Virus record (IMG/VR): IMGVR_UViG_3300043446_005051
Location: 25,427-89,426 of that record
Source: a virus
Length of the DNA stretch: 64,000 bases
Reading direction: 5' to 3' (one strand)
In this document: piece by piece, positions 2,038 through 35,259 of the stretch
Numbering within the stretch: the stretch's first letter is position 1
How the letters are laid out: each line of letters begins with the position of its first letter
The notes under the pieces: model-generated
Told to the model about the DNA's origin: nothing
The model's input: the letters and a program-made list of their open reading frames with translations, nothing else
Database searches by the model: none
Program-made: the position numbers and the translations under genes

Positions 2038-2363
2038 ACCTTAAGTTGTTCTGGACTTTGTTGTGTGCAAACCTGATATTGATGCCCTTCGGGAAGCGTA
2101 TAACGCAGGCATTCCCTCCAGCGAGGGTCTGGAGTCACCTCAGAATACTTTGTAGACCAATCATACCAGCGATTTGCGTGAGGTAGAAACACATTCACAC
2201 GCACAAGCCTTTGATTAGAAAACCAGGCTTTACATTGAACTCCTTCAAATACACGTCCACGATTGTTGTAATAAACATTACAAGTTGTGGGGCGATAGAT
2301 TGGTTGTGCAACAGCAGGAAGAGTAGAAAGAAGAATTGATGCAGAAAGAAGAATGTTTTTCAT
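2034..2363 (-). CDS. hypothetical exported protein
   Basis: Signal peptide MKNILLSASILLSTLPAVA; four Cys. Confidence 0.7.
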   Translation of the reverse strand: MKNILLSASILLSTLPAVAQPIYRPTTCNVYYNNRGRVFEGVQCKAWFSNQRLVRVNVFLPHANRWYDWSTKYSEVTPDPRWRECLRYTLPEGHQYQVCTQQSPEQLKV

Positions 2364-3420: not shown

Positions 3421-3915
3421 CTAAGCAAATAGATACTCTTTCCATTCGCTTACATTTGACCTATGAATCGTTAGAGAGATTTTATTGTATGGTTTGTAAG
3501 GTTGAAATAGTAATTTCATTCCAGCTTCACTAGGAGTTCTATTCCCTTTTTTGAGATTACACTTTAGACAAGCGGTTATCAAATTGGACCATTCATCTTG
3601 ACCATTACGAGATTGAGGTATAATATGGTCAACTGTTAAATTTTCTTTTGAATTGCAATAAGCACAAGTATGATTGTCTCTTGTAAAGATTGATCGACGA
3701 GTAACATTATTTGACATAATTCGATTATAAGGCAATCGAATATAATTTACCAATCGAACTACGTGTTCTGAAAGAATTTGAACTTTTTCTTTAATAATAT
3801 AAACAATCGCTTTTCTTTTTGAAACAATATTAATCGGAGCATAGTCCGCATTTAATACAAGAATTTGATTTTTGAGTTTCATTTTTCTAATGGTTGAACT
3901 TAAAGTCCTGTTCAT
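3421..3915 (-). CDS. HNH endonuclease (McrA/HNH_5-like)
   Basis: VLNADY N-terminus; RD..CAYC, TVDHIIP.S..G...W.NL..AC..CN..KG motifs. Confidence 0.9.
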   Translation of the reverse strand: MNRTLSSTIRKMKLKNQILVLNADYAPINIVSKRKAIVYIIKEKVQILSEHVVRLVNYIRLPYNRIMSNNVTRRSIFTRDNHTCAYCNSKENLTVDHIIPQSRNGQDEWSNLITACLKCNLKKGNRTPSEAGMKLLFQPYKPYNKISLTIHRSNVSEWKEYLFA

Positions 3916-8514: not shown

Positions 8515-9222
8515 TTAAGAGACGCTAGTCTTCATATTACGAAGGTTGAAGAACATTGAACACTGAGATGGGTCCAGTGTTCCATCGAGAAGGTTTTGAA
8601 TGACCATCAGAGTCATACTTGCTGCAAAGAAGTTTGCTGAAATAAGTTGAGGACGACTCGGTGCATTTAATGCACAACTTCCCGAATGTGGAATACTATC
8701 TTGAGGCTGGTCAATATTTGGATATGCAATAGTTGGATTCATACCAACATTCACATTATCAATTCGGCCCCACCAGAGAGTTTGACCTCGAACTTCTTCA
8801 AGGCCATCGCTATTACCTGGAGTAATATAAAAGAAGTCCTTTCCTTGACGAGTATTATTGATTGCATCAATAATCGCTTTACGTGTTGCGTCATTATCTA
8901 CCGAACAGATAATGACAGGACGCTCTGAATTACGAATCATCGGAATGAAAGTAGATGCAGTGATGAACTGGTCTTTGCATTCAACATCAGTTAGTCCCTG
9001 ATAAGAGCAGAAGTCCTTCATTGCTCGTGCTTTATTCATATTGATTTGAGATTCACCCACAATTTGTCGAGTGAGATTTGAACTCTCGAACGAATCACCA
9101 TCAATAAAAGTTACCTTTGCTCCTTGAGTGTTCGGATGATATGCAACGAGTCGAGCAAGTGGAGCAGCGAGATGCCCACCAGTTCCACCCACGCCAATCA
9201 CAAAGAAATCAGAGAAAAACAT
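8515..9222 (-). CDS. ThiF/E1-family ubiquitin-like activating enzyme
   Basis: GVGGTGG nucleotide-binding loop, DGD..E.SNLTRQ, NKA, SVDN.ATR, candidate catalytic Cys in GSCA; start after AGGAGG SD. Confidence 0.92.
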   Translation of the reverse strand: MFFSDFFVIGVGGTGGHLAAPLARLVAYHPNTQGAKVTFIDGDSFESSNLTRQIVGESQINMNKARAMKDFCSYQGLTDVECKDQFITASTFIPMIRNSERPVIICSVDNDATRKAIIDAINNTRQGKDFFYITPGNSDGLEEVRGQTLWWGRIDNVNVGMNPTIAYPNIDQPQDSIPHSGSCALNAPSRPQLISANFFAASMTLMVIQNLLDGTLDPSQCSMFFNLRNMKTSVS

Positions 9223-9277
9223 AAACCTCCTGTTGGAACGAATCAATGGTAGCAGACGAAGACCGTCAAAAACAAAA

Positions 9278-9305
9278 AGGTGGACAGCTCAAAAACCGTC
9301 CACCT
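9278..9305 (-). promoter_or_regulatory. palindromic early-promoter motif copy (E1 gene)
   Basis: AGGTGGACAGctcaaaaaCCGTCCACCT; TGCTACCAT -10 at 9246-9254. Confidence 0.7.
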
Positions 9306-9315
9306 ACATACAGAA

Positions 9316-10284
9316 TTAAATTTGACCAACTAGATAGTTCTCATCCCTAGATACAAACCATTTTCTATTTACTGCATCTGGAACTGTTTCATAGCCATAA
9401 TAAGTACTTCCATTTTTTTCAATTTGAACCTCCTTTGCAGGAATAATCATAATATGTGGAGAATCCTCAAGAGGTTTATATCCAGCTGAAAGAAGAGTAA
9501 AAAATGCTGGAACATCATATTCAGCGTGTACTATGATTATACTATCAATATCTTCTCCATCACATAGAAAATGTTCAGATTCTAGAAGAGAGAATTCATC
9601 ACTATTTTTTAGATACCTTAGAGTGTCACAATTGGTTTCAAACGTACCTAGAGGTAGAAGGTCATTATTAAATTCACTATTAAAGTAGGTTTGAACTACA
9701 CTTCTGAGATTAGTTGGAGCATTGTTGGACCCCCAGCAAATTCCACCTACTTCATATGCATCCCCAAATACATTGGAAGCCATAAGCAATCGAGTTGCAT
9801 AAATTTTATTGTCCAGAGTATATCCTGAACGAAGATATGCTTTATCTGAATCTAAAGACAGATAAGTTCTAAATCTCCCATTTCTAAATGAAAGATTAAC
9901 TTGAAATACCATATCTGCCACATTCATATGAATTGATACATCTTCGGCATTATTCCCCTCTGGGCATTCTTGACCTGTATAACCTTCTTCATACACCCAA
10001 CAATGATTGTCCTCCCCCCCACTCACATCTGTCCAATCAATATCATCATCTTCATCTTTTCGATTGGAAAGGAATGAATAACAATTTCGATAGCATCCAT
10101 CACAAAATTCATTGTAAAATCCATCTGAATCCATTTCAATATCTTGATGAATATCTTTATAGTTGTCTGGCATCCAAGCATTGATTTTTAGAGAATCTTC
10201 TACTTTATAACTAAAGAATTTTGCTCCTTTTGGTAGAAGATGAACATTTACTTTGGGGGGAACAGTTTGAAAAATTACAGACAT
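9316..10284 (-). CDS. prokaryotic E2-like (Prok-E2 family D / PRTRC protein B-like) protein with Cys-rich N-region
   Basis: SNVFG...GGICWGSN..P.....YFNSEFNNDL motif; start moved to 10284 because the -10 box overlaps ATG 10314. Confidence 0.75.
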   Translation of the reverse strand: MSVIFQTVPPKVNVHLLPKGAKFFSYKVEDSLKINAWMPDNYKDIHQDIEMDSDGFYNEFCDGCYRNCYSFLSNRKDEDDDIDWTDVSGGEDNHCWVYEEGYTGQECPEGNNAEDVSIHMNVADMVFQVNLSFRNGRFRTYLSLDSDKAYLRSGYTLDNKIYATRLLMASNVFGDAYEVGGICWGSNNAPTNLRSVVQTYFNSEFNNDLLPLGTFETNCDTLRYLKNSDEFSLLESEHFLCDGEDIDSIIIVHAEYDVPAFFTLLSAGYKPLEDSPHIMIIPAKEVQIEKNGSTYYGYETVPDAVNRKWFVSRDENYLVGQI

Positions 10285-10346
10285 TTTGGATGAATTCTGT
10301 GTAACTTCAGTCATTGTAGCAGGAAGGGGCGGTGTGGATAAAAAAA

Positions 10347-10370
10347 GGGGACACCTCAAAAAGTGTCCCC
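10347..10370 (-). promoter_or_regulatory. palindromic early-promoter motif copy (E2 gene)
   Basis: GGGGACACctcaaaaaGTGTCCCC; TGCTACAAT -10 at 10313-10321. Confidence 0.7.
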
Positions 10371-10383
10371 CGATATTACTATA

Positions 10384-11466
10384 TCAACTAGTAGCAAAAG
10401 CAGATTCATCAATCTCTTTAGCCGCACTAGTTAGTACATCATAGAGATGGAAGATTTTGTTCAGGTCTTCTGAATTCTGATTAATATAGTCATTAATCAG
10501 GTCTTCAATCTCCCATAGTTTAATAGTTTTATTCCCTTCTACATTCTCGGTATTTAGAGTGCCATTCTCGTTAAAAAAGAATGGGTCATCCATATATTGA
10601 TTGTATCCATCATAATCATTATACTTATAGGTTGCATATTTCTCTAGCCACTTATCATACGAATCTGAATCCCTATGGGATTTACCTCCCTTATACTTTA
10701 CAGGAGAATATTTAATTACAGTTGTAGGAGTACTATAATCCACATATTTTAGAACATCTGGATGAAATGTAACTTCTGAAATTGGAGTGGCATCAATAAG
10801 TTCATCATATTTCAGAAGAAAGCGACGACCATTTCCAACTACGGAAGCTGCAATTGTATATACATTTTTATTTACGTCAATACTTCCTACAACTAGATGA
10901 ATACCAGGGTCTCCTAGCTCATACTTATCGTCAATTCCTGAGAAGAAAGATGGCATAGTATTATGCGAATGACTAGACCCAACAGGAATCCACCCAGAAG
11001 GAGGATAAGATTCAACAACCTCTCCAGTTTCAATGTCAATGGATTCATCAAAGCTATCAATTCGTACAGCGGCTCCAGATACCTTTTGTTTGGGTACAAG
11101 AATCCTATATTTTGATGAATCTTCATCCGAACGAAGAATCCGAATAGAAACTTCAACTTCGTTACTTACTTTATTTACAAAGTGAAAACATAGTTTCACC
11201 CAACGAGACCAAAGTTCTGCTGGAATTTTATGAATATCAGAATTTAGTTCAAAATGTTCAAGATGCTCTTTTGTAATTTCTACATTTGCATCTGGGTCTG
11301 GACAAGAACGAATATACTTACCCCAAGGCCCTTGATACACCTCAAAACATCCATCCAAGGAAGTGCGAAGAATTGAAGGAGGAGTATTCACTAGTTCTTC
11401 TTCAATCTTGATTTCATTAATTTCAAGAGTATCTTCTTCGACCATAGTTTGAATAGTTTCTGACAT
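10384..11466 (-). CDS. JAB/MPN+ metallopeptidase (Ubl-processing/deconjugating)
   Basis: Upstream E (NEVEV), P.Q.VS, JAMM motif GSSHSHNTMPSFFSGIDD. Confidence 0.9.
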   Translation of the reverse strand: MSETIQTMVEEDTLEINEIKIEEELVNTPPSILRTSLDGCFEVYQGPWGKYIRSCPDPDANVEITKEHLEHFELNSDIHKIPAELWSRWVKLCFHFVNKVSNEVEVSIRILRSDEDSSKYRILVPKQKVSGAAVRIDSFDESIDIETGEVVESYPPSGWIPVGSSHSHNTMPSFFSGIDDKYELGDPGIHLVVGSIDVNKNVYTIAASVVGNGRRFLLKYDELIDATPISEVTFHPDVLKYVDYSTPTTVIKYSPVKYKGGKSHRDSDSYDKWLEKYATYKYNDYDGYNQYMDDPFFFNENGTLNTENVEGNKTIKLWEIEDLINDYINQNSEDLNKIFHLYDVLTSAAKEIDESAFATS

Positions 11467-11568
11467 AATAAAAAATAATAAAAGAACTTGGGTATAGAAA
11501 ATAATTTGTATGAAAAAACCCTCAAAGGTTATGTAAACCAATGAGGGATTATCTTAGTTAGTTAGGAG

Positions 11569-15351: not shown

Positions 15352-15412
15352 AAAATTTAAATGTCTTATAAGTATTTATAAGACTAACAACTTACACATA
15401 TGTTAGTTAAAA

Positions 15413-15485
15413 CAGGCGTATCAGGATTCGAACCTGAGATGAGGAGGTAGAAGCTCCTAGTGATAATCCACTTCACCATACGCCC
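15413..15485 (-). tRNA. tRNA-Arg(UCU)
   Basis: GGGCGTA acceptor, AGGAG-CTTCTAC-CTCCT arm, GGTTCGAATCC. Confidence 0.9.
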
Positions 15486-15489
15486 ATAA

Positions 15490-15640: not shown

Positions 15641-16030
15641 TTATTTAGGATATCGAATATATGCATTACTTATTTCAAAATTACGAGTTTTACCTTTATT
15701 TGGTACAAATCCGTGTCCTGAATAAAACTTTTTAAGTTTCTCTTTATAATTCTTTTCTGGAGCTTGGTCTAATGACATAGAAGCTCCAATTTTATCTGCG
15801 TGTTTTGTAAGCCCTTTCATAATTCGTCCTCCTACACCTTTACCTCTAAGATGCTTGGGTACCCATATATCGTGAACTTGAATGTTTGGTTTTCCTTTAA
15901 ATTCTTTTTTTGAAAGATACAAATTTAAACCTTGATAACCAGGTCGTTTTTCCCATTTTCTTGAAATAGTTTTATGTGCGTCAGGCTTCGCAGATTTAGC
16001 TTCTTTTATGAATTGCTTAAAAGTTTTCAT
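15641..16030 (-). CDS. GNAT-family acetyltransferase with capsid-targeting-like N-terminus
   Basis: V...LRGKGVG acetyl-CoA motif, L.KFY..HGF; starts MKTFKQFIKEA. Confidence 0.85.
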   Translation of the reverse strand: MKTFKQFIKEAKSAKPDAHKTISRKWEKRPGYQGLNLYLSKKEFKGKPNIQVHDIWVPKHLRGKGVGGRIMKGLTKHADKIGASMSLDQAPEKNYKEKLKKFYSGHGFVPNKGKTRNFEISNAYIRYPK

Positions 16031-16037
16031 AGTCGGT

Positions 16038-16481
16038 TCAGGTTAAATAAGACCTTAACTTATAAACAAAGACACCGTGAGCTTCCATTAAATCTTGAAC
16101 AAGATTTGCAGTGGCGTAACTTCTTTGATTTTCAGCTTCTTCAGAAATATCTTTTAACAATTCAACAATCTTTTGATTATCACTCAACAATTGTTGAACC
16201 ATTCCTTTTGCATCAATAACTTGATTACCATTCGCTGGGCCATCAATAGATGAGACTTCAACCATTCGAGTCATTGTTGACACAGGTCGAATATTTAAAT
16301 ATCGCATATGTTCTGAAATTCTATCAACCTCCTCAAACATTGCTTCATATTGAGCACCAAATAATTCATGAAGTTGTGGAAAATCAGTTCCAGTTACATT
16401 CCAATGATAGTTCCAAGTTTTTTGAAATAAAACAAATAAAGATGCTTGAGTATCAGAAAGTAATTTGTATAGTTTTTCCAT
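16038..16481 (-). CDS. dps: Dps / ferritin-like DNA-protection protein
   Basis: YHWNVTG.DF.QLH.LF..QY...DRISE ferroxidase signature; TATAAATA at 16496-16503. Confidence 0.92.
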   Translation of the reverse strand: MEKLYKLLSDTQASLFVLFQKTWNYHWNVTGTDFPQLHELFGAQYEAMFEEVDRISEHMRYLNIRPVSTMTRMVEVSSIDGPANGNQVIDAKGMVQQLLSDNQKIVELLKDISEEAENQRSYATANLVQDLMEAHGVFVYKLRSYLT

Positions 16482-16498
16482 TATACTTTTTTTATTAT

Positions 16499-16903
16499 TT
16501 ATAAAGATTGCTCTCTGGTAACACGTTTAAAGTCTTTAAGAACTCCATCAACGAAATGAAGTCTACATCTAGGCCAATCATGCCAATCTCCATCCCACGT
16601 TGCAGGATATACTTCTATATATTTGGTGATTTTATGAGGAACATATCTTCCATTTTTTCCAGTAGGGATCCATTCAAAATTTAAAAATTTTGATTTTTCA
16701 TTATATCGTTCATCATTTTTTGAAATCTCTTCAAATGTATGAGTACCAATATAATCAGGTCTCCATAGCTGACCTGCAGGGTCCAACCAATAGAGAGTCA
16801 TTGTGCCGCCAATTCCATATTCAATGTCTTTTGTCTGGCAATATACGTTTGTAAACTCTTCTCCTAGATTATAGGAAGAGCGAAAATCATCGAACATACC
16901 CAA
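16499..16903 (-). CDS. conserved phage hypothetical protein
   Basis: MGMFD...QTKD...Y.LDP.G.L...F.DG.L pattern. Confidence 0.75.
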   Translation of the reverse strand: MGMFDDFRSSYNLGEEFTNVYCQTKDIEYGIGGTMTLYWLDPAGQLWRPDYIGTHTFEEISKNDERYNEKSKFLNFEWIPTGKNGRYVPHKITKYIEVYPATWDGDWHDWPRCRLHFVDGVLKDFKRVTREQSL

Positions 16904-17089
16904 TTACGAATCCTCCTGTTTTGAACTAAAATAAATTTTATAGTAGCGTTTTTTCATACCTTCTATTAAATTCATATCATCTTCAAATCCCATATATTTA
17001 AGTAATTGATAAGACCCTTCTAATTCACTAATAAGTCTTAATACATTAGTGGGGGACCTTTCGAGTCCCCCAAAAGAGTAAATATTCAT
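16904..17089 (-). CDS. cyanophage-type hypothetical protein
   Basis: FGGLER.P.NVLRLISELEGSYQL.KYMGF pattern. Confidence 0.7.
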   Translation of the reverse strand: MNIYSFGGLERSPTNVLRLISELEGSYQLLKYMGFEDDMNLIEGMKKRYYKIYFSSKQEDS

Positions 17090-17322
17090 ACTAAATCATT
17101 TTCAATATCCAATTCATTAATATGAACTTTTTCTCTTTTTGAATAGAGTTTTGAATAACTACAAATTTTACACTTGGGATTTCCACAATCTAAAGGGTCT
17201 TGTTTAAAGATTCGTCCAAAAGAAAGAGAATTGTCTGGAATAAATTCAAAATGTTTGTGTAACTTTTTCCACTTATTTTGAAGTCGTTTTGCTTGATGAC
17301 GTTGATAAGCAGTTTTAGCCAT
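17086..17322 (-). CDS. hypothetical protein with CGNPKC..C motif
   Basis: 78-aa ORF. Confidence 0.65.
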   Translation of the reverse strand: MAKTAYQRHQAKRLQNKWKKLHKHFEFIPDNSLSFGRIFKQDPLDCGNPKCKICSYSKLYSKREKVHINELDIENDLV

Positions 17323-17339
17323 TCATTGAAGGTTTAGCT

Positions 17340-17543
17340 TTATTTAGAACTCACAAAAGTATTAATTTTATTTGCTAGTACTTCAATCTTTTCATAAGAA
17401 GGAAATTCTGGATATGCCATTTTCACTGTATTATGTGGATTCTCATTCCACAAAGAAACAATAGAATACTCTGCTTGATATTCAGACTCCGCAAGAGCCT
17501 GAGCTTGCTCAAAAATTTTAAATCGAAGTTCGTAAGGTGTCAT
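17340..17543 (-). CDS. conserved phage hypothetical protein
   Basis: MTPYELRF.IF.QA...FP....I..LA.KIN.FVS; start after AGGA SD. Confidence 0.75.
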   Translation of the reverse strand: MTPYELRFKIFEQAQALAESEYQAEYSIVSLWNENPHNTVKMAYPEFPSYEKIEVLANKINTFVSSK

Positions 17544-17594
17544 AATTTTATTCCTGTGTGTATGATGTGTGAAATTTGCTAATACGATTAGCAA

Positions 17595-17668
17595 TACCCG
17601 AGGTCGGATTCGAACCGACGACTGCTCGATTTTAAGTCGAGAACCTCATTCCGCTGGGTCACTCGGGC
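17595..17668 (-). tRNA. tRNA-Leu(UAA), short variable arm
   Basis: GCCCGAG acceptor, CTCGA-CTTAAAA-TCGAG, GTCGG-TTCGAAT-CCGAC; 74 nt. Confidence 0.85.
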
Positions 17669-17669
17669 A

Positions 17670-18296
17670 AAAAGGGCTTTAGTGCGTCTATTCCCTGGTG
17701 CATCTGTGTTATTCCAAGCTGGAACATAATCGCACATCTCGTCGTATCCGAGTTCAGATGCTTCCCCACTCATTTAATCTAATGAGCAAATCAAATAATT
17801 GAATTCACCTTCTATGCTTGCGACCCTGATTTGATCAGAATCTAGCCTCGTACATCTTCTAACTTTCTATACCGTGAATATAGTCTGTCAGAGGTCTTAC
17901 GACACAATCACCCATTTTCACAGATGACGTTAGGGGCTTCGGCTTCATCAATTGCAGTTTGCCTAATGTACCACCCGAAGGAACGATACACGGTGCTTTC
18001 ACGGCGATTCCTTAACCGAAGAATCGTTTACCGTCCTATTTCTGGGATAACTACTGTAATTCACCAGTCATATAAGAAGCATTCACTATTGGCGTTGTGC
18101 TCACTCTCATATGCTACTTACGGTATCTGCTTCCGCCAAGAAGAATTAACCGATAGAAGATTGGTGGAGTTGGCCGAGGCAATCACCTCTAGTCTCCATC
18201 TTCCTTTCCCTTATACATCTTACGATGCCTGACCCTCATAGATTAGAAGTCAGTTTTCTAAGACCTTTTCAATCTTAGGGGAGGGACAATCCCGAT
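17670..18296 (-). ncRNA. large structured ncRNA candidate (GOLLD/ROOL-like context)
   Basis: ~630 nt without credible ORF, GC-enriched, many hairpins with GNRA/UUCG loops, own sigma70-type promoter, between tRNAs. Confidence 0.65.
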
Positions 18297-18331
18297 AAGA
18301 CAACCATAGAGTAAAACTCTTGAGTTGTCAA
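18296..18331 (-). promoter_or_regulatory. sigma70-type promoter within inverted repeat
   Basis: TTGACA-17bp-TATGGT; GACAAC...GTTGTC arms. Confidence 0.65.
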
Positions 18332-18403
18332 TGGTTCTGGAAAGACTTGAACTTTCTTCAGCCCCTTATAAGGAGGCGGCCTTAACCCATAGGCGACAGA
18401 ACC
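18332..18403 (-). tRNA. tRNA-Ile(UAU), second distinct gene
   Basis: GGTTCTG/CAGAACC acceptor, GCCTC-CTTATAA-GGGGC arm, TTCAAGT T-loop. Confidence 0.8.
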
Positions 18404-18405
18404 AA

Positions 18406-18441
18406 TAAGACAATCATAAGACCTAAATCTCAGATTGTCAA
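18406..18441 (-). promoter_or_regulatory. sigma70-type promoter within inverted repeat
   Basis: TTGACA-17bp-TATGAT; GACAATC...GATTGTC arms; homologous to 18296-18331. Confidence 0.7.
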
Positions 18442-18442
18442 G

Positions 18443-18524
18443 TCCTCGTTTTCAGACTCGAACTGAAACTCCTTTCGGAAGTGGTTTTTGAGACCACTGC
18501 GGCTACCGATTACGCCAAACGAGG
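18443..18524 (-). tRNA. tRNA-Leu(CAA)
   Basis: CCTCGTT acceptor, GTGGT-CTCAAAA-ACCAC, long variable arm TCCGAAAGGA. Confidence 0.9.
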
Positions 18525-18592
18525 TATTAAGTGAACGTGGCCTCAACCACCTTCATAGATTACCACTCACTCAGATGGAAGTCAAGAGATGT

Positions 18593-18614
18593 GTGCCAGT
18601 TGAAAAACTGGAAC
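18593..18614 (-). promoter_or_regulatory. palindromic early-promoter motif copy
   Basis: GTGCCAGTtgaaaaACTGGAAC. Confidence 0.65.
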
Positions 18615-18621
18615 CTTAATA

Positions 18622-18939
18622 TCAGTCTCTTCTCCTCCAACCATCATCGTTATCCCGATGAAAGAAATCAGCAATGTCATCAGGTGAATCAAAATGAGTT
18701 CGGTGATTAGATGGGTCGGGGTCTCCTAAATCCAAAGCATTTAAAAACCCATCTAAACTATCTTCTGCCATACTTGGATTATCAGATAATCTTCTTGCTT
18801 GTCGCAACATTGTAGCAGCAGAGGGATTCGCCTTTGAGAGTTTTTCGGCCCATATCATATCTTCTAATGAGACTTCGTTGTGTGATGATATATTTTGGCA
18901 GATTTTTTCCAAACGAAGTCTATATGCAGTTGATAACAT
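18622..18939 (-). CDS. conserved cyanophage-type hypothetical protein
   Basis: MLSTAYRLRLE.IC..I.....V.LEDMIWA.KL...LGDPDPSNH...W..RD pattern. Confidence 0.8.
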   Translation of the reverse strand: MLSTAYRLRLEKICQNISSHNEVSLEDMIWAEKLSKANPSAATMLRQARRLSDNPSMAEDSLDGFLNALDLGDPDPSNHRTHFDSPDDIADFFHRDNDDGWRRRD

Positions 18940-18967
18940 TTAAAATCTCCATATTAAACTTATTTAG

Positions 18968-19621
18968 TTATCTCATATTAAGAGGAGTTAATCTAGATGA
19001 TCTTCTTTTCTTCTTTTGCCTTGGAGAAAGAGGGCGACCTACACTTGCATATTGCCTATTGGAGTCATCAGTATCTCCAAATCTATGATATTTATAAATG
19101 TCTTTATGAGTGTCTGATGCTGGAGTATTTGATACTATACTATGAGATGGGAACCGGTCTTCAACATTTTTTTTATAGATATTTTTAGCCTTATTTGCAA
19201 GTCTTATTCTTTCTTTTTGAGACAATCCACTAACACTATGAGACACATTCCAATCTACCTCGTGATGGGGCTTCCCTTCAATATCTTTAAGCCGAGTGAT
19301 TGTATAATATATTCCACTTCCTGGATGTTCTATTTGTGTTACTTTTTTATCTTTGGATTGATGTACCATTACACCAGAATCAGAATGTGGGTTCACTGAG
19401 GGATTATCAGAACCGTGTTTTACTTTTTTTTCTAAAGTCCTAGATAATCGAAGTCTTCTTGACTTTACACTTTCTGGAGTTCTCGGTTCGTTTGGAGTTC
19501 TTTCAAGCTTCTCTTTTGATTTTTGCACTGGAGATTTACCTGAAGGTAAAGGTTCATCTGGTGGATAATATTTTTCAAGTATAATATTTGTTTTATCTAT
19601 AAATTCTTGAAAAGTAATCAT
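18968..19621 (-). CDS. basic hypothetical protein, possible internal head protein
   Basis: Starts MITFQEFID...LE; K/R-rich. Confidence 0.7.
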   Translation of the reverse strand: MITFQEFIDKTNIILEKYYPPDEPLPSGKSPVQKSKEKLERTPNEPRTPESVKSRRLRLSRTLEKKVKHGSDNPSVNPHSDSGVMVHQSKDKKVTQIEHPGSGIYYTITRLKDIEGKPHHEVDWNVSHSVSGLSQKERIRLANKAKNIYKKNVEDRFPSHSIVSNTPASDTHKDIYKYHRFGDTDDSNRQYASVGRPLSPRQKKKRRSSRLTPLNMR

Positions 19622-19818
19622 TTTTGTTCGTTCCCTAAAGCATTAATCCAGACTTTTTTATAATCATAATCTCCAAATAAAAACTCATCTGCATTTGCAG
19701 CTTCACGATATGCATTTAGAATATCCTCTTCACACCATTCATCATAATTTGGATCTTGTGAGATTAGTTTTGAGTCCATTTTTTTATTTATGATTTTTTG
19801 ATATTTATTTTTTAATTA

Positions 19819-20514
19819 TTAGTCATTTTCAATTCCATGTCTTTTTGCAGCTGCTGCCATTCTTGCTTGTAGTTTTGGTAAGGTCCGGCCTCTTCTTTCC
19901 TTATCTAATTTATCTCTTCTTGATTGCCTTCTTTCTAAATTTACTAAAGTAGTAAATGCTCTCATTGGAGTGATTGCATTTTCTACATCTTTTAATTTCC
20001 CTCTATGCCTTCTTTCAAAAGCATGATAAGCTCCATGATGGAATCCCGGTTTTTCTGGTTTAAATTCACTTACAGGGCCTCTATTTGCAAGAACTAAATT
20101 TCTCGGGTCATCTCCATGAAATTTATTCTCCTTTCTTTGAGCAGTTTTATATCTTAGTCTCTCTCCAGGACTCATATTTCTCATTATTTCACCAGAATGC
20201 TCTACTCCAGTTGCATGATGTAGGTCCATGCCTCTTTGTGTTCTAATTTTTCTTTTTCTATCTACTTTTAGAGATTCCCTTGGAGTTAACTTACCTGTAG
20301 CTATTTTAATATTCTCTTCTCTTTTTTTAGATGCTTTGTCTTGAGTTCTTACATAACTAAGACCCCATTTTGGGTTTTCACTAGTTCCTCTTTGTTTTGG
20401 AACAAATCCATGTGGAATTCCTTTATAATGACTAATTAATTCATCTTTAGATGAAAAGTGAGGATATTTTTCATATTTAGTAGCTTCCTCTAAAAACTTT
20501 TGATATGTCTTCAT
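19819..20514 (-). CDS. basic protein with capsid-targeting-like N-terminus, possible HNH-like His cluster
   Basis: MKTYQKFLEEA; DLHH...GDDPRNL...H..YH; TAAATA late-type element upstream. Confidence 0.7.
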   Translation of the reverse strand: MKTYQKFLEEATKYEKYPHFSSKDELISHYKGIPHGFVPKQRGTSENPKWGLSYVRTQDKASKKREENIKIATGKLTPRESLKVDRKRKIRTQRGMDLHHATGVEHSGEIMRNMSPGERLRYKTAQRKENKFHGDDPRNLVLANRGPVSEFKPEKPGFHHGAYHAFERRHRGKLKDVENAITPMRAFTTLVNLERRQSRRDKLDKERRGRTLPKLQARMAAAAKRHGIEND

Positions 20515-25612: not shown

Positions 25613-28600
25613 TCAATTATATAATTGAGCATCAAAACGTTTATCAGCATCACTATCTGCTAAACCAATTATATTTACATCAAAGGAGTCTTTACCTCTT
25701 AAATAAGTGTATAAATTAAATGGACCAGAATTATAATCTTTTGCCCATATTTTTGCTCCATATTTTAATTTAACTTGATTGTTCTCGTTATTAATACTAC
25801 TCTTTGTTGAATTACTAATATTATAAAATTGACTAGCAGTAGTACCAGTAGGTGGTTCAAGAATTGAGAATGCCTCCGCACATACATTGGGCCTTTCGTG
25901 GAATCCATTATAGAATGCACTCATATCCCAATTATTGTTATTAAAGTTCCATTTAACTTTTGGTCCAATACGAGATGCTATTGTACAATTACCTCTTCCA
26001 CCGATTCCAACCATTGTTAATTTAACAGCAGATGAGAAACTATGAATAAAGCTAAATCGTAATGTATTATTATCTTCAATAGGGTCACCATACCCAGCTT
26101 GTTTGAAATCAAAAATTAAATCTACGCCTTGACCTGCTAGTCCACCTACTTGGTCTACCATTGACATATGAGTCGATGTATTACCCACACCACTTGAAGT
26201 TGGTGCAGGATAACATGCAGTTCTAATATCATAGTTTTTACCGGGACCATCTTTAAGTGGAATAGAAACTCTAAATTGTATTTTCTCACCATAAGATGCA
26301 GTTGCATTGATTAATTTATTATTGTTTCTGCAATTATACCAATTAATATTCATATCTCGACCAGCCACTCCAAATCCACCATTAAAAGTTAAAATAACAT
26401 CAGATACAGATGTAGCTCCTATGCCTACATTAACATTTATATCTTGGAATATTATTCCAGAAGAAATAATTGGGAAATCAAACTGAGTAAATCTTGTATC
26501 TGCAGTTATCATAGAATTTGTTCCACCAACTGTCATCGTAATTCCAATACCAGAGGAAGCCCCTCTAGCTGCTGCTACAACCACAGGAGTCCAGCTATTT
26601 GAAATCATTAGAGGACCTTCTTCTTGAGCTGTAATGTTATTATGAACACTTACGATAATTTCTGAACCAAGTGGAACATACCTATTAGATGCTTCTCTTA
26701 ATGCCTCAGTTACAGATGTGAAAATTGTATTTCTCAAATTTTCAGAGCCTGGGATGTAGCTTGTAAAGCTTACTCCTTCTGGAGAATAACCATCAGGGAC
26801 TGAATTATCCCCGGTCAATGCCGAACCAGGAGATGATGCTACGTGTAATATAATAAATGAACCAGTTTTAGGCGCTTTAGCGTAATTAGTATTCAGATAT
26901 TCTACTACTGCTTTTTCTGTTGGTATTTTTGTATCCAAAGCTGATTCTTGAATTTTATTCACAGAATTTCGAATAGCACTTCCAGTTATAATTCCACTGA
27001 TTCTAACATCTCCATTTACATCAAGTTTGAAAGAAGGATTATTTACACCAAGTCCAAGATTACCTTCTATCGTTACTGGATAATTATAAGAAGATGTACC
27101 TATTCTAAAGAATTCTATTCTTCTAGTTGTAGTATTTCTAATTAACTTCATTACTTCTGATGTAGATGAAGTCAAAGAGGTTGTGATGCCAAGAGTTAGG
27201 TCACCTGAATTATTCGTTAATGAATATGTATTATCATTACTACTATCTCTCATTAAAAATGTAGGAGAATTGTTAACAATAGATACATTTTCTCTGATGG
27301 TAACACTCGTTAGTCCGACTTCAACATCTCCATTTCTAATGGAAATAACTCTATCAGTTGATATTGCAACAACTGTATTATTTGAATCGAAAGAAGCTGG
27401 ACTAAAACTTGGAAGAGTTGCAGTTCCACTTGTGATTGCGAGTTTCCATGTGTTTTTATCTAAACTAGTACTATTTTCAGTATCCACTCCAGCCATCCAA
27501 TATGGTTTAGAACCACATCTCCAAGATAGGACAGCATCTCCTTGATTATTTCCATTTAAAATTGATAAATGAGCACCATCACTTCCATTACCTGAAGTTG
27601 TCTTCCCAATTTGAACTATTCCATTATTTAAAGTAGTTGGAAGAATAGAGAGAGTAGAAACTGAGGAGCCACTTCCTACGAAATTCCTTAATTCAACTGA
27701 ACCTCCTAAATCGTCTGCTTGAATTATGAGTTTACCAGTTCCATAGTGGTCTATTATAGAATTTCCATTTAGTAATGTACCACTAGTGTCTTCACGTCTA
27801 AAACTTAAAGATGGCACATCTCCATTAGTGTTTATTCCAACATCTATGCGTCGCCCAGTACCCTGTAAGTAGATGGCATTACCACTAGTAATGGCATTAT
27901 CATTTTGTATTATAACTCTTTGTCTTAAGTTTATACCAGTTAGAAGGCCATCTCCGTTATTATCTCTGCCATATACTGGACCTAAAAATGTTGAAACTCC
28001 AGTTACTCTTAATGACTTTAAATTTAATGAATCTATTTTGTTTATAGTGTCAGTAAATTTTACTCCATTAATAGTTAACGATTCAGTGGCTGTTATTTCT
28101 CTAGCTTTAATCTCATCTACCTCAATATTCCATCTGTCTGAACTTTTGCTTATTAATCCCCAATATCTCCAAGGCGTATTAGTGTTATTCACTTTTATCC
28201 GGCCAATATATGAATCCCCGGATGGAGCATACGCAATTGTCCCTATTTTTTCATTAGAAGGAAGTTCTACATTTGGAGTACTAACAAAAAACTTTTTATT
28301 ATTTAATGTTAATGTATTTAATTCAAACTCTTTTGCAAAAGTTACATTACCTTGGAAACGTACAGGTCCATAGAAGATAGAACTTTCTGTTCCATTTTCA
28401 CCGCCTTCTACTGTTAATTTTTGACGAATTAACATATTATCAAAGATGCCTGACATTCTGCTTGGGTCATCTGACCCATCAGCATCATCTCCAGTGAAGG
28501 TAATTATAGGAGCTTTTATAGTAGTTTGTTGACCAGTAATTGCACTAACTTTAGTAGCTCCATTATAAAATTCTCCAATGTCATTCATTCCACTGTAAAC

Positions 28601-31600
28601 TACAGTTCCTCCAGACAGTTCACGGGATTGAGATACTATAATCTCATCATCTGAGAGCTTTCTAGACTGCTTCTGAGGAATAGATGTTGAGTAGTTACCT
28701 GGGCCATACCCTAAGTACTCAAAGGTATGCCCAGAGGCTCTCATAAAGGATGGTCTACGTAACTCAACTGGCAATAATTTTATTTTATAGACTCTAGAAT
28801 TTGCTGGAATATCTATTTTGGTAGTTCCAAACATTCCACGTTGAACTGTAAACTGGTTCTGGTCAACTCCTGAAGCTGGTGAAATTATTCTCATAATTTC
28901 ACCATTTATTTGAATATAGTCACCTCGATTAAATCCACGAGTATCATTAAATTGAATTAAGGTATTATTCTTACTAATTTGATTAATTGAAGAAGTTGTT
29001 ATTCCATCATATATGAAATTTAATCTACTTTCTAAATTTTCTCCGGTTCTACCGGTGGACTTTGCATTTGGTTGGAATATTTTTTTATAAATAAATCCTT
29101 GTGTGGGTTCAATAATTGAATTTAATTGACCAATATTAAATGTAAATGTAGTTAGTCCAATAACAGAATTAACTATAAAATCAGAATCATATGATGTTTG
29201 CCCACTTCCTATTATCTTAAAGTTATTACCTTCACTCAATCCGTGTTCAGATGATGTTGTTACTGTAACTATTCCGGTTGTAATATCATTAAAATCAAAA
29301 TTTGATACTTGTATTCCACTGGAAGATAAGACTCCAAAAGGAACTCTATTGTTTCTATTTGGAACATATGTTGGTAGATTTGTAGTTGTATATACAACTA
29401 CTGTATTTGAATTTGGAATTTCTTTTATTCTAAAGATATCATTAAATTCATTCTGTATAAATCCACCTAGTTCTAATCCACTATTTACGTTATCTACTAT
29501 TGCACTTACAGTTGCCGTTGAATTCGAACCTATTCCAATCGTATTATTTACTGAGAAATTAGACCCCCCATCAATGATTTCAAAATATGCAATATCATTT
29601 GATGTAATTGTATAATTACATTTAGCATCAGTTTCATTTCCTCCCTTGGTGATAGGTACTCCATAGTAAGTTCCATCTGGGTGGCTTCCAGAAATATTGA
29701 AATTATTAACTTCAGAAATTGAATTTAATTTATGTTCAACTGTAGTTGTAATTGTAAGAGTTGTATTTCCAAGTCCACTTTGAACTAAATTTGAAATTCC
29801 AAATCCAATATTATTTTGAATTAGATATCCAATAGACTCTCTGGTAATTGAGAACCTCTTATCGTTTGTGATAACTTTTCCTGGTATCAAATGGTCAGCA
29901 TAACTTACTGCTTCCTTTGGATTAGGTACAAAGTTATCTCTATCTACTTGTGGATATAAATTTCTTACATCTTGATTATAATTTTTCAAAGAAAGCCCGT
30001 ACCCAATATTTTCACTTGTTTTTACATTAGATGTAATAAGAGTTAAATGATAAATTCCATCTTGTCCATTATTTCCTGGAATATGAGGTTTTATAGTATC
30101 AACTTTATAAACAGTAAGAGTATTTTTATACTTTTCTCTTGATACTACTGGTAGTGACGAAATGGTTGACTCATTTCTAATTTGAGTATTATTTGTGAAT
30201 GCTCCTGGATTTGTTGATACTCCTGAAATTCTGTAAGTAAATGTTCTAGAATCAATAATACTTAATACTTCATAAGAACCATTAAATGTTGATGTTATTC
30301 CAGTTGCAGCTGGATTAAATGTACTCTTTACGTTATTAATGAATACAGTGTCCCCTTGTAAAAACTTATGAGGAAGCTCGGTTTTTACTGTTACTACTTG
30401 TGAATTATTTGAAATACTTCCAGCAGATATTGAAGAGATTACCTTTTCATTTCTTTTATCAAAAATTGATAAATTATTTTCTAATGAAATACTTCCAACT
30501 GTAACTCCAACTGATTTAGATTCTTGAAGGACAAACCCAACAGAAGGTTCTCTAATATTTTTATAATCTTTAGGTATCACATAACGAACTTTATATAATC
30601 TATCTTCTAAAGTTCTGGTCTCAGCAATTCTACTAAAATAAGTTTCTTGAGTAGAATCTCCAAGTTTAGAATTTACAGAAGAAAGTTGATCTCTTATTTC
30701 ATTGCCTGCAATTATATACCAGTTATTGACAGAAGGATCCCATTGAATTGGATGACCTGGTTCTCCTGGTAGTTTATCTGAAACGTAACTTACTATGGTT
30801 AATCCTTGTATATTATTTGTTCCAAACCCAGTTATTTCATTTCCATCTAAAGCATCATTATAATTATAAGCTAATTTTATTGTATTACTACCCGTATTAA
30901 TTGCATAATATATTGAATTGGAAACCAATCCGTCTGGCATCCTTCCAATCTCACTGAAAATTCTTACTTTTTCTCCAGTTATAAACTGATGATTAGATAC
31001 TGTTATATTACCATTAGATGGATTTACCCCTCCAATTGAATATTTCTTCAATGATGAAATATTTGGGTTTGCCGATTTTGGCTGCATATAAATTGGAGAG
31101 CTATATACATCCGTATTACTATTTTCTTCTGAACTACTTGTTGGTAAAATTAAATTTAAAGTGTCTCCAATTTTAGAACCAATTCTATATCCATCAATTT
31201 TAGATGGAGGTAGAACATTTATATCATTATATTGATATAGGTAAATTTTATTTGACCCATCTATAGTTAGATTTACATCTATTGGAAGCCAAGTAACTTC
31301 CAATTCATTTTGAGGCACCTCTCTTGGAGGTATAATATGAGTTATGTAACCGACATCATCCCTATCAAATGATTTGTTTCTAAAATCATAACTTTCTAGA
31401 GCAAGAGCTCCAAAGTTTGAGTTGGAGTTGGTGATGCTCATATCACCACCGGTTTCAGTTACGAAGTGCTTTGCGAAACCAATGGCAAAAATTGAAACAC
31501 ATTGAATAAATGAATTATTAGACGCTCTTATATGGAAGTTTTCAAATTTTGGATCGTAAATTGCAGAAGAATTTGTATGAAGAGGTCTTTCTGGGTCAGA

Positions 31601-32962
31601 TGCTGTAAGTTGATTTTGTTTTACGTAATTATTAGATGCTTTTGAATAAAGTAAGAATGCATTATCATCTTTCTGTAGAGAAATTCCAGTGAATTGAGCA
31701 ACTACTATAGATTTAAATCCGTCCGCCTTATCTCCATCTGCCCACAAGCCACACATTCCATAGGAGGAACGAAGAGAACAGTTGAAAATATATGGAGAAG
31801 AAGATGATGTTGAATCACTTTCAACTTTTATAATAGCATTTGAAATTGAATTCTGTGATGGTAATTTATTTGAAGGTATTGAAGGTGTAATATAAGTAAA
31901 TGTATTTGGTCCTACAACACTTCTAACTATAAATGAACCATTATATGATGTTGGGTCTACAGTAATTCCTGAAATTAATATCGGAGTATTTTCAGCTAGA
32001 TTATGAGGTGCATCTAGATTTGAAATTAAATCTTTTGTAGTTACAGTAATTTCATTTAGAACACCACCACCAGCTCCATTTCCAGAACGAATTGATGAAA
32101 TTCCAATCAGATTTTCTTCTAGAACTCCAACTATTCTATATTCATCTATAATTGGCTCAATTTCTAGATTCGTTGGGTAATTAGGAATATCTCTACCGCT
32201 TTGAATACCATATGCATTTGCAATTTTGTAATAATACATTTGGAGGTCAGTTAAATCAGTCTGCTCAAGACCTAATTTAACTTTGTTTACACCATCCGCA
32301 TATGTAAATGCTGTTAATTTATGATGAGAAAACTTGCCAATTACTAGGCTATCTGTATAATCCTTATATACGCCAGTGGCAACATCAGCATCAAAAAAAG
32401 TAAATGAAGTAAAGTAACAATTTCCGGTAACTTTAAATATGCTAGATCTATCTACGGTATCTTCTAGAGGATCTGGTACATAAAGAGGTCTAATTTTTGT
32501 TTTACGTAAATCTAAACCAACAATAGAAGTACCTCTAGGTAAAATTACTCCACCTTCTACTGAGTTAAATTTATACAGGTCGTTTGTAGAATCAAATATA
32601 TCGAAATTGGAATTTTCCGTAAATTCATTTAAATTTTCAACTTGCCAATTATCTGCCCCTCTTCTTTTTTTATATACTGCATTATTACCAGATTTGGTAA
32701 TTGACAAACCAGGTCTATTATCAATATAATGAGTACCTGAAGACACTAAAATAGTAGTTCTATCATTTAAATCATTATCAAATCCAAGTTGATATGAAAA
32801 TCTTGAAGCTTCAATTAAAGCTCTTTGAATTGTTTTAAAAGGTCTTGTTGCACTATCTCCACGATTCTCGAAGCTATCCGTAGCATCAAAACTATTTGGG
32901 TCTACGTATATAACTGTACCTTTAGGTGAACGTAGAAAATTTTCTAATCTTGAAATTGGCAT
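25613..32962 (-). CDS. very large tail fibre/baseplate-associated structural protein (2449 aa)
   Basis: MPISRLENFL..YVDP..DATD.....G.....PFKTIQRALIE cyanophage structural N-terminus; T.TxxxHxL repeats; G.G...P..KLDVNG fibre motif. Confidence 0.85.
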   Translation of the reverse strand: MPISRLENFLRSPKGTVIYVDPNSFDATDSFENRGDSATRPFKTIQRALIEASRFSYQLGFDNDLNDRTTILVSSGTHYIDNRPGLSITKSGNNAVYKKRRGADNWQVENLNEFTENSNFDIFDSTNDLYKFNSVEGGVILPRGTSIVGLDLRKTKIRPLYVPDPLEDTVDRSSIFKVTGNCYFTSFTFFDADVATGVYKDYTDSLVIGKFSHHKLTAFTYADGVNKVKLGLEQTDLTDLQMYYYKIANAYGIQSGRDIPNYPTNLEIEPIIDEYRIVGVLEENLIGISSIRSGNGAGGGVLNEITVTTKDLISNLDAPHNLAENTPILISGITVDPTSYNGSFIVRSVVGPNTFTYITPSIPSNKLPSQNSISNAIIKVESDSTSSSSPYIFNCSLRSSYGMCGLWADGDKADGFKSIVVAQFTGISLQKDDNAFLLYSKASNNYVKQNQLTASDPERPLHTNSSAIYDPKFENFHIRASNNSFIQCVSIFAIGFAKHFVTETGGDMSITNSNSNFGALALESYDFRNKSFDRDDVGYITHIIPPREVPQNELEVTWLPIDVNLTIDGSNKIYLYQYNDINVLPPSKIDGYRIGSKIGDTLNLILPTSSSEENSNTDVYSSPIYMQPKSANPNISSLKKYSIGGVNPSNGNITVSNHQFITGEKVRIFSEIGRMPDGLVSNSIYYAINTGSNTIKLAYNYNDALDGNEITGFGTNNIQGLTIVSYVSDKLPGEPGHPIQWDPSVNNWYIIAGNEIRDQLSSVNSKLGDSTQETYFSRIAETRTLEDRLYKVRYVIPKDYKNIREPSVGFVLQESKSVGVTVGSISLENNLSIFDKRNEKVISSISAGSISNNSQVVTVKTELPHKFLQGDTVFINNVKSTFNPAATGITSTFNGSYEVLSIIDSRTFTYRISGVSTNPGAFTNNTQIRNESTISSLPVVSREKYKNTLTVYKVDTIKPHIPGNNGQDGIYHLTLITSNVKTSENIGYGLSLKNYNQDVRNLYPQVDRDNFVPNPKEAVSYADHLIPGKVITNDKRFSITRESIGYLIQNNIGFGISNLVQSGLGNTTLTITTTVEHKLNSISEVNNFNISGSHPDGTYYGVPITKGGNETDAKCNYTITSNDIAYFEIIDGGSNFSVNNTIGIGSNSTATVSAIVDNVNSGLELGGFIQNEFNDIFRIKEIPNSNTVVVYTTTNLPTYVPNRNNRVPFGVLSSSGIQVSNFDFNDITTGIVTVTTSSEHGLSEGNNFKIIGSGQTSYDSDFIVNSVIGLTTFTFNIGQLNSIIEPTQGFIYKKIFQPNAKSTGRTGENLESRLNFIYDGITTSSINQISKNNTLIQFNDTRGFNRGDYIQINGEIMRIISPASGVDQNQFTVQRGMFGTTKIDIPANSRVYKIKLLPVELRRPSFMRASGHTFEYLGYGPGNYSTSIPQKQSRKLSDDEIIVSQSRELSGGTVVYSGMNDIGEFYNGATKVSAITGQQTTIKAPIITFTGDDADGSDDPSRMSGIFDNMLIRQKLTVEGGENGTESSIFYGPVRFQGNVTFAKEFELNTLTLNNKKFFVSTPNVELPSNEKIGTIAYAPSGDSYIGRIKVNNTNTPWRYWGLISKSSDRWNIEVDEIKAREITATESLTINGVKFTDTINKIDSLNLKSLRVTGVSTFLGPVYGRDNNGDGLLTGINLRQRVIIQNDNAITSGNAIYLQGTGRRIDVGINTNGDVPSLSFRREDTSGTLLNGNSIIDHYGTGKLIIQADDLGGSVELRNFVGSGSSVSTLSILPTTLNNGIVQIGKTTSGNGSDGAHLSILNGNNQGDAVLSWRCGSKPYWMAGVDTENSTSLDKNTWKLAITSGTATLPSFSPASFDSNNTVVAISTDRVISIRNGDVEVGLTSVTIRENVSIVNNSPTFLMRDSSNDNTYSLTNNSGDLTLGITTSLTSSTSEVMKLIRNTTTRRIEFFRIGTSSYNYPVTIEGNLGLGVNNPSFKLDVNGDVRISGIITGSAIRNSVNKIQESALDTKIPTEKAVVEYLNTNYAKAPKTGSFIILHVASSPGSALTGDNSVPDGYSPEGVSFTSYIPGSENLRNTIFTSVTEALREASNRYVPLGSEIIVSVHNNITAQEEGPLMISNSWTPVVVAAARGASSGIGITMTVGGTNSMITADTRFTQFDFPIISSGIIFQDINVNVGIGATSVSDVILTFNGGFGVAGRDMNINWYNCRNNNKLINATASYGEKIQFRVSIPLKDGPGKNYDIRTACYPAPTSSGVGNTSTHMSMVDQVGGLAGQGVDLIFDFKQAGYGDPIEDNNTLRFSFIHSFSSAVKLTMVGIGGRGNCTIASRIGPKVKWNFNNNNWDMSAFYNGFHERPNVCAEAFSILEPPTGTTASQFYNISNSTKSSINNENNQVKLKYGAKIWAKDYNSGPFNLYTYLRGKDSFDVNIIGLADSDADKRFDAQLYN

Positions 32963-35254: not shown

Positions 35255-35259
35255 TTCTC

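Follow-up and report, generated by a model that had tools for sequence, protein, structure and literature searches.

Introduction

The phage RNAs ROOL and GOLLD are described, in the available part of the report on their structures, as "often near tRNA islands", of unknown function, and forming RNA-only cages (10.1101/2024.12.08.627333). The same part mentions possible ties of both RNAs to tRNAs and ribosomes, and states that GOLLD expression rises in phage lysis and that tRNAs are sometimes embedded in GOLLD. Here we analyze 64,000 nt of viral DNA (the window), which belong to an 89-kb IMG/VR virus record (IMGVR_UViG_3300043446_005051, referred to as G000) with a completeness estimate of 42%. 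Between two of its tRNA genes, tRNA-Leu(UAA) and tRNA-Ile(UAU), the minus strand carries a gene for a structured non-coding RNA (ncRNA) with a conserved core of 620 nt, which we call the cyanophage RNA. Covariation among homologs, contigs in RNA libraries and the lack of any match in Rfam 15 among nine copies scanned make a well-supported case for a family that is new but belongs, in general terms, to an already known kind of large structured phage RNA. Large RNAs that are structured but have no known function are rare, and the cyanophage RNA enlarges the small group of large phage RNAs.

A conserved non-coding RNA in a tRNA array

The gap that holds the RNA is 661 nt long and lies between tRNA-Leu(UAA) (17594-17669) and tRNA-Ile(UAU) (18331-18404), both on the minus strand according to ARAGORN, which places all ten tRNA genes of the window (10/10) on that strand. 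The GC content is 0.43-0.44 in the gap and lower on both sides, with 0.28-0.32 immediately ahead of the gap and 0.32-0.36 past it. A first-pass annotation, made from the sequence alone, had pointed to a GC-rich gap in the tRNA array at this place and had proposed a large structured phage RNA within it. Both statements hold, the first by the ARAGORN positions and GC content and the second by covariation in nine homologs and by contigs from RNA libraries. The extent that had been proposed, 17670-18296, is slightly different from that of the conserved core, which runs on the minus strand from 18293 to 17674 (GGGAUUG to AAAGCCC).

The phage carrying the RNA appears, by sequence comparison, to be a freshwater T4-like cyanophage. 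In one baseplate protein, the N-terminal gp53-like part (residues 1-175 at most) has its best matches in T4-like cyanophages, at 33-43% identity among the 12 records listed, and 460/560 records matched by the baseplate protein are named Synechococcus, Cyanophage or Prochlorococcus.

Ten distinct copies of the RNA were collected, the window copy included, which are 68-99% identical and have cores of 601-634 nt. BLAST against 50,697 phage records matched a single phage, Synechococcus phage S-CRM01 (two records), with 75.7% identity over 570 nt, and a search of the same records with the most divergent copy (L068) again matched S-CRM01 alone. The match falls between tRNA-Trp and tRNA-Asn, where the GenBank record annotates no feature, and the cyanophage RNA fills this unannotated 660-nt gap of the S-CRM01 reference genome. 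As an isolated and sequenced phage with a culturable host (Synechococcus LC16), S-CRM01 is also a practical subject for further work. Word scans on conserved blocks added copies from two IMG/VR contigs (L036 and L078) and five distinct copies from metagenome contigs (L065, L066, L067, L068 and L070; L064 equals L067, and L069 is the L036 contig). The remaining copy, L225, lies on a 2.6-kb contig that was binned in an Alphaproteobacteria metagenome-assembled genome; given that a small open reading frame (ORF) of the window has a homolog on it, this contig is taken for a phage fragment.

A profile search (nhmmer) over all 224 loci fetched up to that point gave no further homologs. Many word matches were rejected: L003-L006 as well as 31/33 and 22/23 loci from word scans were chance matches with no likeness beyond the word itself, and a 14-base degenerate word gave at least 118 loci, none of them a new homolog by nhmmer. 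A first word scan of genome contigs had no matches, and 3/4 genome-contig word matches of the scan that yielded L225 were due to chance. All homologs were gathered through exact conserved words, and more distant members would therefore be missed. Judged from these copies, the family has so far been found only in freshwater S-CRM01-like T4-type cyanophages.

The folding energy of the minus strand is -185.1 kcal/mol (z -3.1), which was equaled in 0/20 shuffles, and the plus strand gave a z of -1.2 with 2/20 shuffles as good. The minus strand alone is thus more stable than its shuffles. Compensating changes were present at 40/171 predicted pairs with three sequences and at 70/171 with eight. A plain RNAalifold model of nine sequences had 180 pairs that were 96.7% paired, and 67 of these pairs changed on both sides versus 23.2±3.3 in shuffles. 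In our refined model, RNAalifold helices that were contradicted by the changes in S-CRM01 and L068 were swapped for supported alternatives, and crossing helices were added. This model is based on the same nine sequences and comprises 174 pairs in 33 helices (98.1% paired), of which 75 pairs changed on both sides versus 24.3±3.6 in 500 shuffles, and 0/500 shuffles reached the observed value on any of five measures. In slid controls, where the 3' partners were moved by 1-3 columns, only 38-43% were paired and 4-11 pairs changed on both sides. The RNAalifold (ribosum) helices at columns 152-157/386-391, 182-185/271-274, 94-97/395-398, 12-15/19-22 (a 5' hairpin) and 23-27/564-568 were dropped because the alternatives fit the changes in S-CRM01 and L068 without any mismatch.

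The location in a tRNA array and the longest ORF within the gap, which has 102 aa and lies on the plus strand (17924-18232), might instead suggest that the gap codes for a protein or consists of a series of decayed tRNA genes. However, at least five stops occur in each of the six frames in every one of the nine homologs, and the variable columns are spread over the three codon positions (107/113/102) without codon periodicity. The longer antisense open stretches change frame from homolog to homolog, and a search of the nine homologs for a conserved reading frame found none. Neither ARAGORN nor the Rfam tRNA model (RF00005) finds a cloverleaf between 17670 and 18330 or inside the RNA in eight homolog loci, and the helices covary in an architecture that is not that of a cloverleaf. 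Both explanations are therefore hardly conceivable. The first-pass annotation had itself named a conserved reading frame, or missing covariation among homologs, as grounds for giving up its candidate; there is no such frame, and covariation is present. We have thus shown that the minus-strand interval is conserved as RNA structure, not as protein, and the RNA gene is non-coding.

Relation to Rfam families

At gathering scores, the Rfam 15 scan of the window gave nine tRNA matches and one abiF match, with zero in the gap. A permissive scan of 17500-18600 (E<=10) returned seven rows, all on or beside tRNAs and none within 17670-18330, and a permissive scan of eight homolog loci (E<=5) returned 28 rows, none of which lies inside the RNA. 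Together the scans cover nine copies (the window and the eight homolog loci); the tenth, L225, was a later find and is not among them. In the window and these eight loci, the group I and group II intron models gave no rows, and in the window the flanking tRNAs are complete and uninterrupted. Likewise, RNase P RNA and tmRNA had no Rfam match there, and ARAGORN called no tmRNA in the window.

The cyanophage RNA could in principle be truly homologous to ROOL or GOLLD but so divergent that the Rfam models miss it. It shares their niche (a phage, beside tRNA genes), its 620 nt are close to the size of ROOL with its 574-position model, and it combines pseudoknots with a variable linker, as ROOL does in the available part of its description (10.1101/2024.12.08.627333). 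However, no ROOL or GOLLD row appeared in the all-family scans of the window, of 17500-18600 or of the eight homolog loci, and the permissive all-family scans were empty for the window copy (E<=10) and for the eight homologs (E<=5). The ROOL model RF03087 (574 positions, gathering score 99.1 bits) had no match at E<=10 anywhere in G000, which is a weak argument when taken alone since the control genomes were without match too. The GOLLD model RF02032, which covers the conserved 3' region (gathering score 150 bits), had no match in S-CRM01, G001 or G002, and in G000 its single match lay away from the RNA and had 11 nt and 4 bits (E 8). Such distant homology is therefore quite improbable. The first-pass annotation had proposed either a member of the GOLLD/ROOL kind or a new class. 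As no Rfam 15 family, including ROOL and GOLLD, matches any of the nine copies scanned, it is the second of these proposals that holds.

An RNA belonging to a mobile element, either an intron without an ORF or the guide RNA of a transposon nuclease, would agree with flanks that are not conserved among loci and with an HNH endonuclease gene elsewhere in the window (3421-3915). However, the RNA is present in one copy each in S-CRM01 (a complete genome), G000, G001 and G002, it interrupts no gene, and it matches no intron family or other Rfam 15 family. Its neighbourhood lacks a shared ORF for a nuclease, reverse transcriptase or transposase, and among the flanking ORFs none common to all loci was found. 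Apart from tRNA or tRNA-like neighbours, the RNA is the sole element shared by every locus carrying it. A mobile element is therefore very unlikely.

Secondary structure

All positions in the following refer to the minus strand, read from the 5' end of the RNA. Domain 1 (18207-18286) is closed by helix P-alpha (18282-18286 with 18207-18211) and encloses the hairpins P2 (18258-18278), P3 (18229-18253) and P4 (18215-18228), in which 6/8, 6/8 and 4/5 pairs, respectively, changed on both sides. In P-alpha this was the case for 2/5 pairs, and alternative pairings fit worse. Domain 2 (18155-18204) is the three-tier hairpin P5. It holds the pseudoknot PK1, in which the end loop of P5 (18181-18184) pairs with its own 3' internal loop (18159-18162), with 3/4 pairs changed on both sides and 100% paired. 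Domain 3 (18042-18152) consists of the hairpins P6, P7 and P8, whose stems covary. After domain 3 comes a variable linker (18008-18029), where alignment columns 276-303 vary in length and sequence and where the window copy holds a hairpin of its own, CGATTCTT/GGAATCG.

The next segment (17961-18004) starts with CCGUGAA (17998-18004), which is invariant, and continues with hairpin P10, which is tipped by UUCG and has 5/12 pairs changed on both sides. In the 3' domain (17764-17953), P11 (17941-17953 with 17797-17809; columns 377-382/529-534) crosses P1' (17933-17936 with 17764-17767; columns 394-397/564-567). The domain encloses P12 to P15, and P16 comes after these. Changes on both sides were found in 3/6 pairs of P11, 1/4 of P1', 8/11 of P12, 8/11 of P14 and 2/7 of P16, and P15 (17813-17854) is near-invariant. 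Covariation is thus present in two crossing pairings (pseudoknots), namely PK1 within P5 and P1' with P11. The P17 branched domain (17700-17761) is closed by GCAUCU/AGAUGC, a helix with 2/6 pairs changed on both sides, and holds the invariant hairpin CUCG-GAUACGA-CGAG as well as a variable arm. At the 3' end, a hairpin (17672-17698) carries a conserved 17-nt loop ending in ACUAAAGCCC; 3/5 of its pairs changed on both sides, and it is 84% paired.

Seven of the eight helices that the first-pass annotation had proposed by eye are part of this conserved structure. Five are kept and covary, namely those at 18216-18227 (P4), 18156-18203 (P5), 18258-18278 (P2), 17769-17786 (P16) and 17700-17761 (P17). 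The helices at 17894-17903 (P13) and at about 17975-17981 (the P10 tip) belong to the structure without covariation, as P13 is invariant and the P10 tip varies on one side only. The eighth, the CGATTCTT/GGAATCG hairpin at 18005-18026, falls in the variable linker and is not a conserved feature, because the length and sequence of the linker differ among homologs.

Two pairs of invariant complementary loops are candidate tertiary contacts, and we treat them as leads only. The loop UUGGCG of P6 (18134-18139) might form a kissing pair with the loop CGCCAA of P7 (18089-18094), and the CCGUGAA stretch is complementary to the invariant loop UUCACGG of P14 (17872-17878). Covariation cannot assess these pairs because the loops never vary in the nine sequences.

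Presence in environmental RNA

Twenty of the 24 public runs listed, from 11 studies, contain part of the stretch, and six are RNA libraries. Four metatranscriptome runs from three studies were compared, as Logan contigs, with positions 16000-20500 of the window. The contigs of the RNA runs span about 17683-18308 and little else of this region, and the adjacent tRNAs are not joined to them. In one run (X13), near-identical RNA contigs have depths of 329 and 535 versus 2-9 on the flanking genes. This is 40-260 times the depth of the neighbours and therefore not as expected from contaminating DNA. In the same run there is an adapter-like loose end at 17683, presumably an Illumina adapter, and in X17, from another study, a contig starts at 17684. 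Stretches of the 4.5 kb that lack contig cover in X16-X18 carry no meaning. Some contigs skip parts of the RNA at low depth (from 17855 to 17931, 17984 or 18028, and from 18014 to 18115). These skips were not taken as splicing because the contigs aligned at 88% likeness and the sequence between is unknown. The cyanophage RNA is abundant in environmental RNA samples from lakes, and together with the well-determined secondary structure this abundance makes it tractable.

Promoter and 3' end

The first-pass annotation had noted TTGACA-17-TATGGT upstream of the RNA, and this sigma-70-like promoter is indeed present on the minus strand at 18331-18303, with TTGACA at 18331-18326, a 17-nt spacer and TATGGT at 18308-18303 (10/12 consensus positions). 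The start predicted from it is near 18296. Promoter-like sites at most 45 nt upstream of the core were found in 6/10 copies (window, L078, L066, L070, L225 and L067), and in S-CRM01 the core begins 30 nt after the end of a tRNA.

On the other side of the gene, no terminator-like site was found on the minus strand between the RNA and tRNA-Leu(UAA), a tRNA called by ARAGORN and the Rfam tRNA model that lies 5 nt past the AAAGCCC end (17674) and whose 5' end is the inferred RNase P site. A called tRNA lies within about 11 nt 3' of AAAGCCC in four copies (Leu in the window, Asn in S-CRM01, Thr in L067 and one in L078). L066, L070 and L225 have a cloverleaf-like fold 3' of the RNA, called by neither ARAGORN nor Rfam and followed by a terminator-like hairpin, and in L036 and L065 this place is taken by a branched fold with a 7-bp closing stem. 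In total, a tRNA or a cloverleaf-like or branched fold follows the RNA within about 11 nt in 9/10 copies. That a tRNA look-alike is kept between RNA and terminator suggests that an RNase P cut there makes the 3' end.

The layout of these loci makes the following route fairly probable as a whole. The RNA would be transcribed by the host sigma-70 RNA polymerase, either from its own promoter or by read-through from the upstream tRNA genes, it would have no terminator of its own, and RNase P would create its 3' end by cutting at the 5' border of the directly following tRNA or tRNA look-alike.

The same arrangement could be read as a cis-acting leader or spacer, which would aid the expression, folding or processing of tRNAs or carry RNA polymerase through terminators. 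The RNA does run in the same direction as the tRNAs, and no terminator separates them in the window. However, the neighbouring tRNA differs between loci, and in L066, L070 and L225 the unit consists of promoter, RNA, cloverleaf-like fold and terminator-like hairpin, with nothing downstream to serve. Moreover, the RNA contigs stop short of the tRNAs despite a depth in the hundreds in X13. We therefore think a cis-acting role has little chance of being correct.

A catalytic RNA would either excise itself from the tRNA transcript or act on tRNA precursors in place of, or together with, the host RNase P. Its large size, pseudoknots and invariant unpaired stretches are what such an RNA might have, as are the embedding in tRNA arrays and the discrete contig ends in RNA libraries. 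On the other hand, none of the Rfam 15 models of group I or II introns, RNase P RNA or small self-cleaving ribozymes matches the RNA, and the flanking tRNAs are complete, so the RNA is not an intron in a gene. The tRNA-like fold kept on the 3' side in 9/10 copies also suggests cutting by the host RNase P, and catalysis by the RNA is unlikely.

Proposed role

We find it probable that the interval is a gene for a stable, trans-acting, highly structured ncRNA of about 620 nt, the family of which lies outside Rfam. We rank a trans-acting scaffold first, since the RNA forms a conserved unit in itself, is abundant and stands where ROOL and GOLLD do in other phages. Such a scaffold would act during infection alongside the phage's own tRNA set, and might either use the invariant complementary loops for self-assembly or bind components of the translation machinery. 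By analogy with ROOL and GOLLD, a scaffold role of this kind is possible, and we propose it tentatively. More speculative still, and rather doubtful, is that the cyanophage RNA would be a third independently evolved phage RNA family building RNA-only assemblies. In that case UUGGCG/CGCCAA and CCGUGAA/UUCACGG might act between copies like the kissing loops of ROOL and GOLLD, and the UGGC loop might engage the 3' ends of phage tRNAs. This loop resembles the UGGN bulge of the T-box, which pairs with the NCCA ends of tRNA. Should RNA-only assembly be true, self-assembling large RNAs beside tRNA arrays would be a general phage strategy that reaches cyanophages.

Several points weigh against a trans-acting RNA gene expressed and processed as proposed. 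Four of the ten copies (L036, L065, L068 and S-CRM01) lack a clear promoter, and the RNA contigs extend 7-12 nt further upstream (to 18303-18308) than the promoter-predicted start; therefore the promoter may not define the 5' end. On the 3' side, L068 has no tRNA-like fold directly after the RNA, and the folds of L036 and L065 are minimum-free-energy predictions alone. The invariant complementary loop pairs show no covariation, and complementary unpaired stretches are not enriched over shuffles, with 3 6-mers versus 1.4±1.5 and one 7-mer versus 0.27±0.60, values that about 20% of shuffles reach. The Logan contigs carry no strand, true ends or level, their ends may reflect strain branching, and the RNA runs were found using this very stretch. 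Finally, sampling is narrow, with ten sequences only, two of them 99% identical, and all obtained via exact conserved words.

Neighbouring genes and other features

The tRNA genes around the RNA seem to have sigma-70-like promoters of their own. For tRNA-Ile(UAU), which lies just upstream of the RNA, the promoter-like site is TTGACA-17-TATGAT (18441-18413, minus strand), and before tRNA-Leu(CAA) there is TTGACT-17-TAATCT at about 18540-18570, as found by eye. The tRNA(UAA) at 17594-17669 has only 76 nt and a 5-nt variable region without a long extra arm, and tRNA-Leu(CAA) (18442-18524, 83 nt) has the long arm. The amino-acid identity of the former may, judging from this shape, be other than ordinary leucine.

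The cloverleaf-like fold of L066 (minus strand, about 7-80 nt past the RNA), L070 and L225 has the anticodon-loop CUGUUAA (GUU) and an odd T-loop, AGCGUUA. Next come a hairpin and a stem that resembles a terminator and has a U run, and S-CRM01 has a true tRNA-Asn(GUU) at that place. Some 680 nt downstream from the RNA, the 3.2-kb metagenome contig of L066 also matches bacterial large subunit (LSU) rRNA (1-487, minus strand, 91.5 bits), a match that is cut off at the contig end. Possibly abundant RNAs were joined into a chimeric contig here, or else the LSU rRNA match may be local.

An 84-aa ORF (17340-17594, minus strand) without a Pfam match abuts tRNA-Leu(UAA) and was considered as a constant partner protein. 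In L225 its homolog (587-922, plus strand, 53% identity) lies just upstream of the promoter of the RNA. The ORF was ruled out as a constant partner because it is absent from S-CRM01, G001 and G002.

Other RNA elements occur near tRNA genes of these phages. In the window, an abiF motif (RF03085; 15493-15529, minus strand) scores 50.2 bits (gathering score 37) and lies directly upstream of tRNA-Arg(UCU) (15412-15486). In the part of the source available, this motif is reported in cyanophage S-CREM1 (PMC9964418). Just after the tRNA-Glu genes of S-CRM01, there is a weak match to YrlA (RF02553) at 2098-2212 (plus strand) of L007, which corresponds to about 132222-132336 of S-CRM01, with 35.9 bits, below the gathering score of 69, and an E of 1.3e-4. 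Further from the RNA, the window has on its minus strand, at 8515-11541, 25613-32962 and 34082-38764, a ThiF-family ORF close to an ORF that weakly matches the JAB domain, one ORF of 2449 aa and three RCC1-repeat ORFs. From their domain matches, the ThiF-family and JAB-domain ORFs could be a ubiquitin-like pair.

Comparison with known systems

No prior description of the cyanophage RNA was found in the literature searched, with the text of the S-CRM01 genome paper outside that search. It might be among the candidates that a catalogue of structured viral RNAs published in 2023 lists (PMC10690425); three contig numbers are absent from six of its nine supplementary files, the part of the catalogue that was covered. 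In its general features the cyanophage RNA is an ornate phage ncRNA, as it is longer than 400 nt, has many covarying helices with pseudoknots, is non-coding and phage-borne, and is present in RNA libraries.

The tRNA cluster of phage T4 encodes the stable non-tRNA RNAs species 1 and 2 (rnaC/rnaD), which are made on the same transcripts as the tRNAs and have no known function. They resemble the cyanophage RNA as non-tRNA RNAs inside the tRNA cluster of a T4-type phage, and differ from it in having only about 120-140 nt. A likeness of another kind is offered by MALAT1 and MEN-beta, where RNase P cuts at a tRNA-like element and so makes the 3' end of a long ncRNA. In L066, L070 and L225, too, an ncRNA is directly followed by a tRNA look-alike. 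However, MALAT1 and MEN-beta are eukaryotic nuclear RNAs, and the processing proposed for the cyanophage RNA follows from gene layout alone.

The closest likeness is to the large phage RNAs. The cyanophage RNA has the traits of the ROOL niche, as it is located in phages, abuts tRNAs in the window, S-CRM01, L078 and L067, and has a core (601-634 nt) within ROOL's range of about 580-660 nt. In the available part of its description, ROOL is likewise a large (about 600 nt), multi-helix, pseudoknotted phage ncRNA that is abundant, often stands beside tRNAs and has a poorly conserved linker (10.1101/2024.12.08.627333). The two differ in that the cyanophage RNA gives no match to the ROOL covariance model, and in that its hosts are freshwater cyanophages, whereas the ROOL examples given there are a cow-rumen sequence and a Ligilactobacillus strain. 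GOLLD, according to the same part of the report, is large and ornate, occurs near tRNA genes in phages or prophages and comes partly from lake metagenomes. Unlike GOLLD, whose model has no match here, the cyanophage RNA is short (620 nt versus more than 800 nt in many GOLLD members described there), and while GOLLD is split into a conserved 3' and a variable 5' part, it is conserved in both halves with no such split seen. From these comparisons we read the cyanophage RNA as sharing the niche of ROOL and GOLLD while being a member of neither. A further family in the same genomic niche, with unrelated sequence and in a different phage group and habitat, suggests that the niche beside phage tRNA genes itself selects such RNAs.

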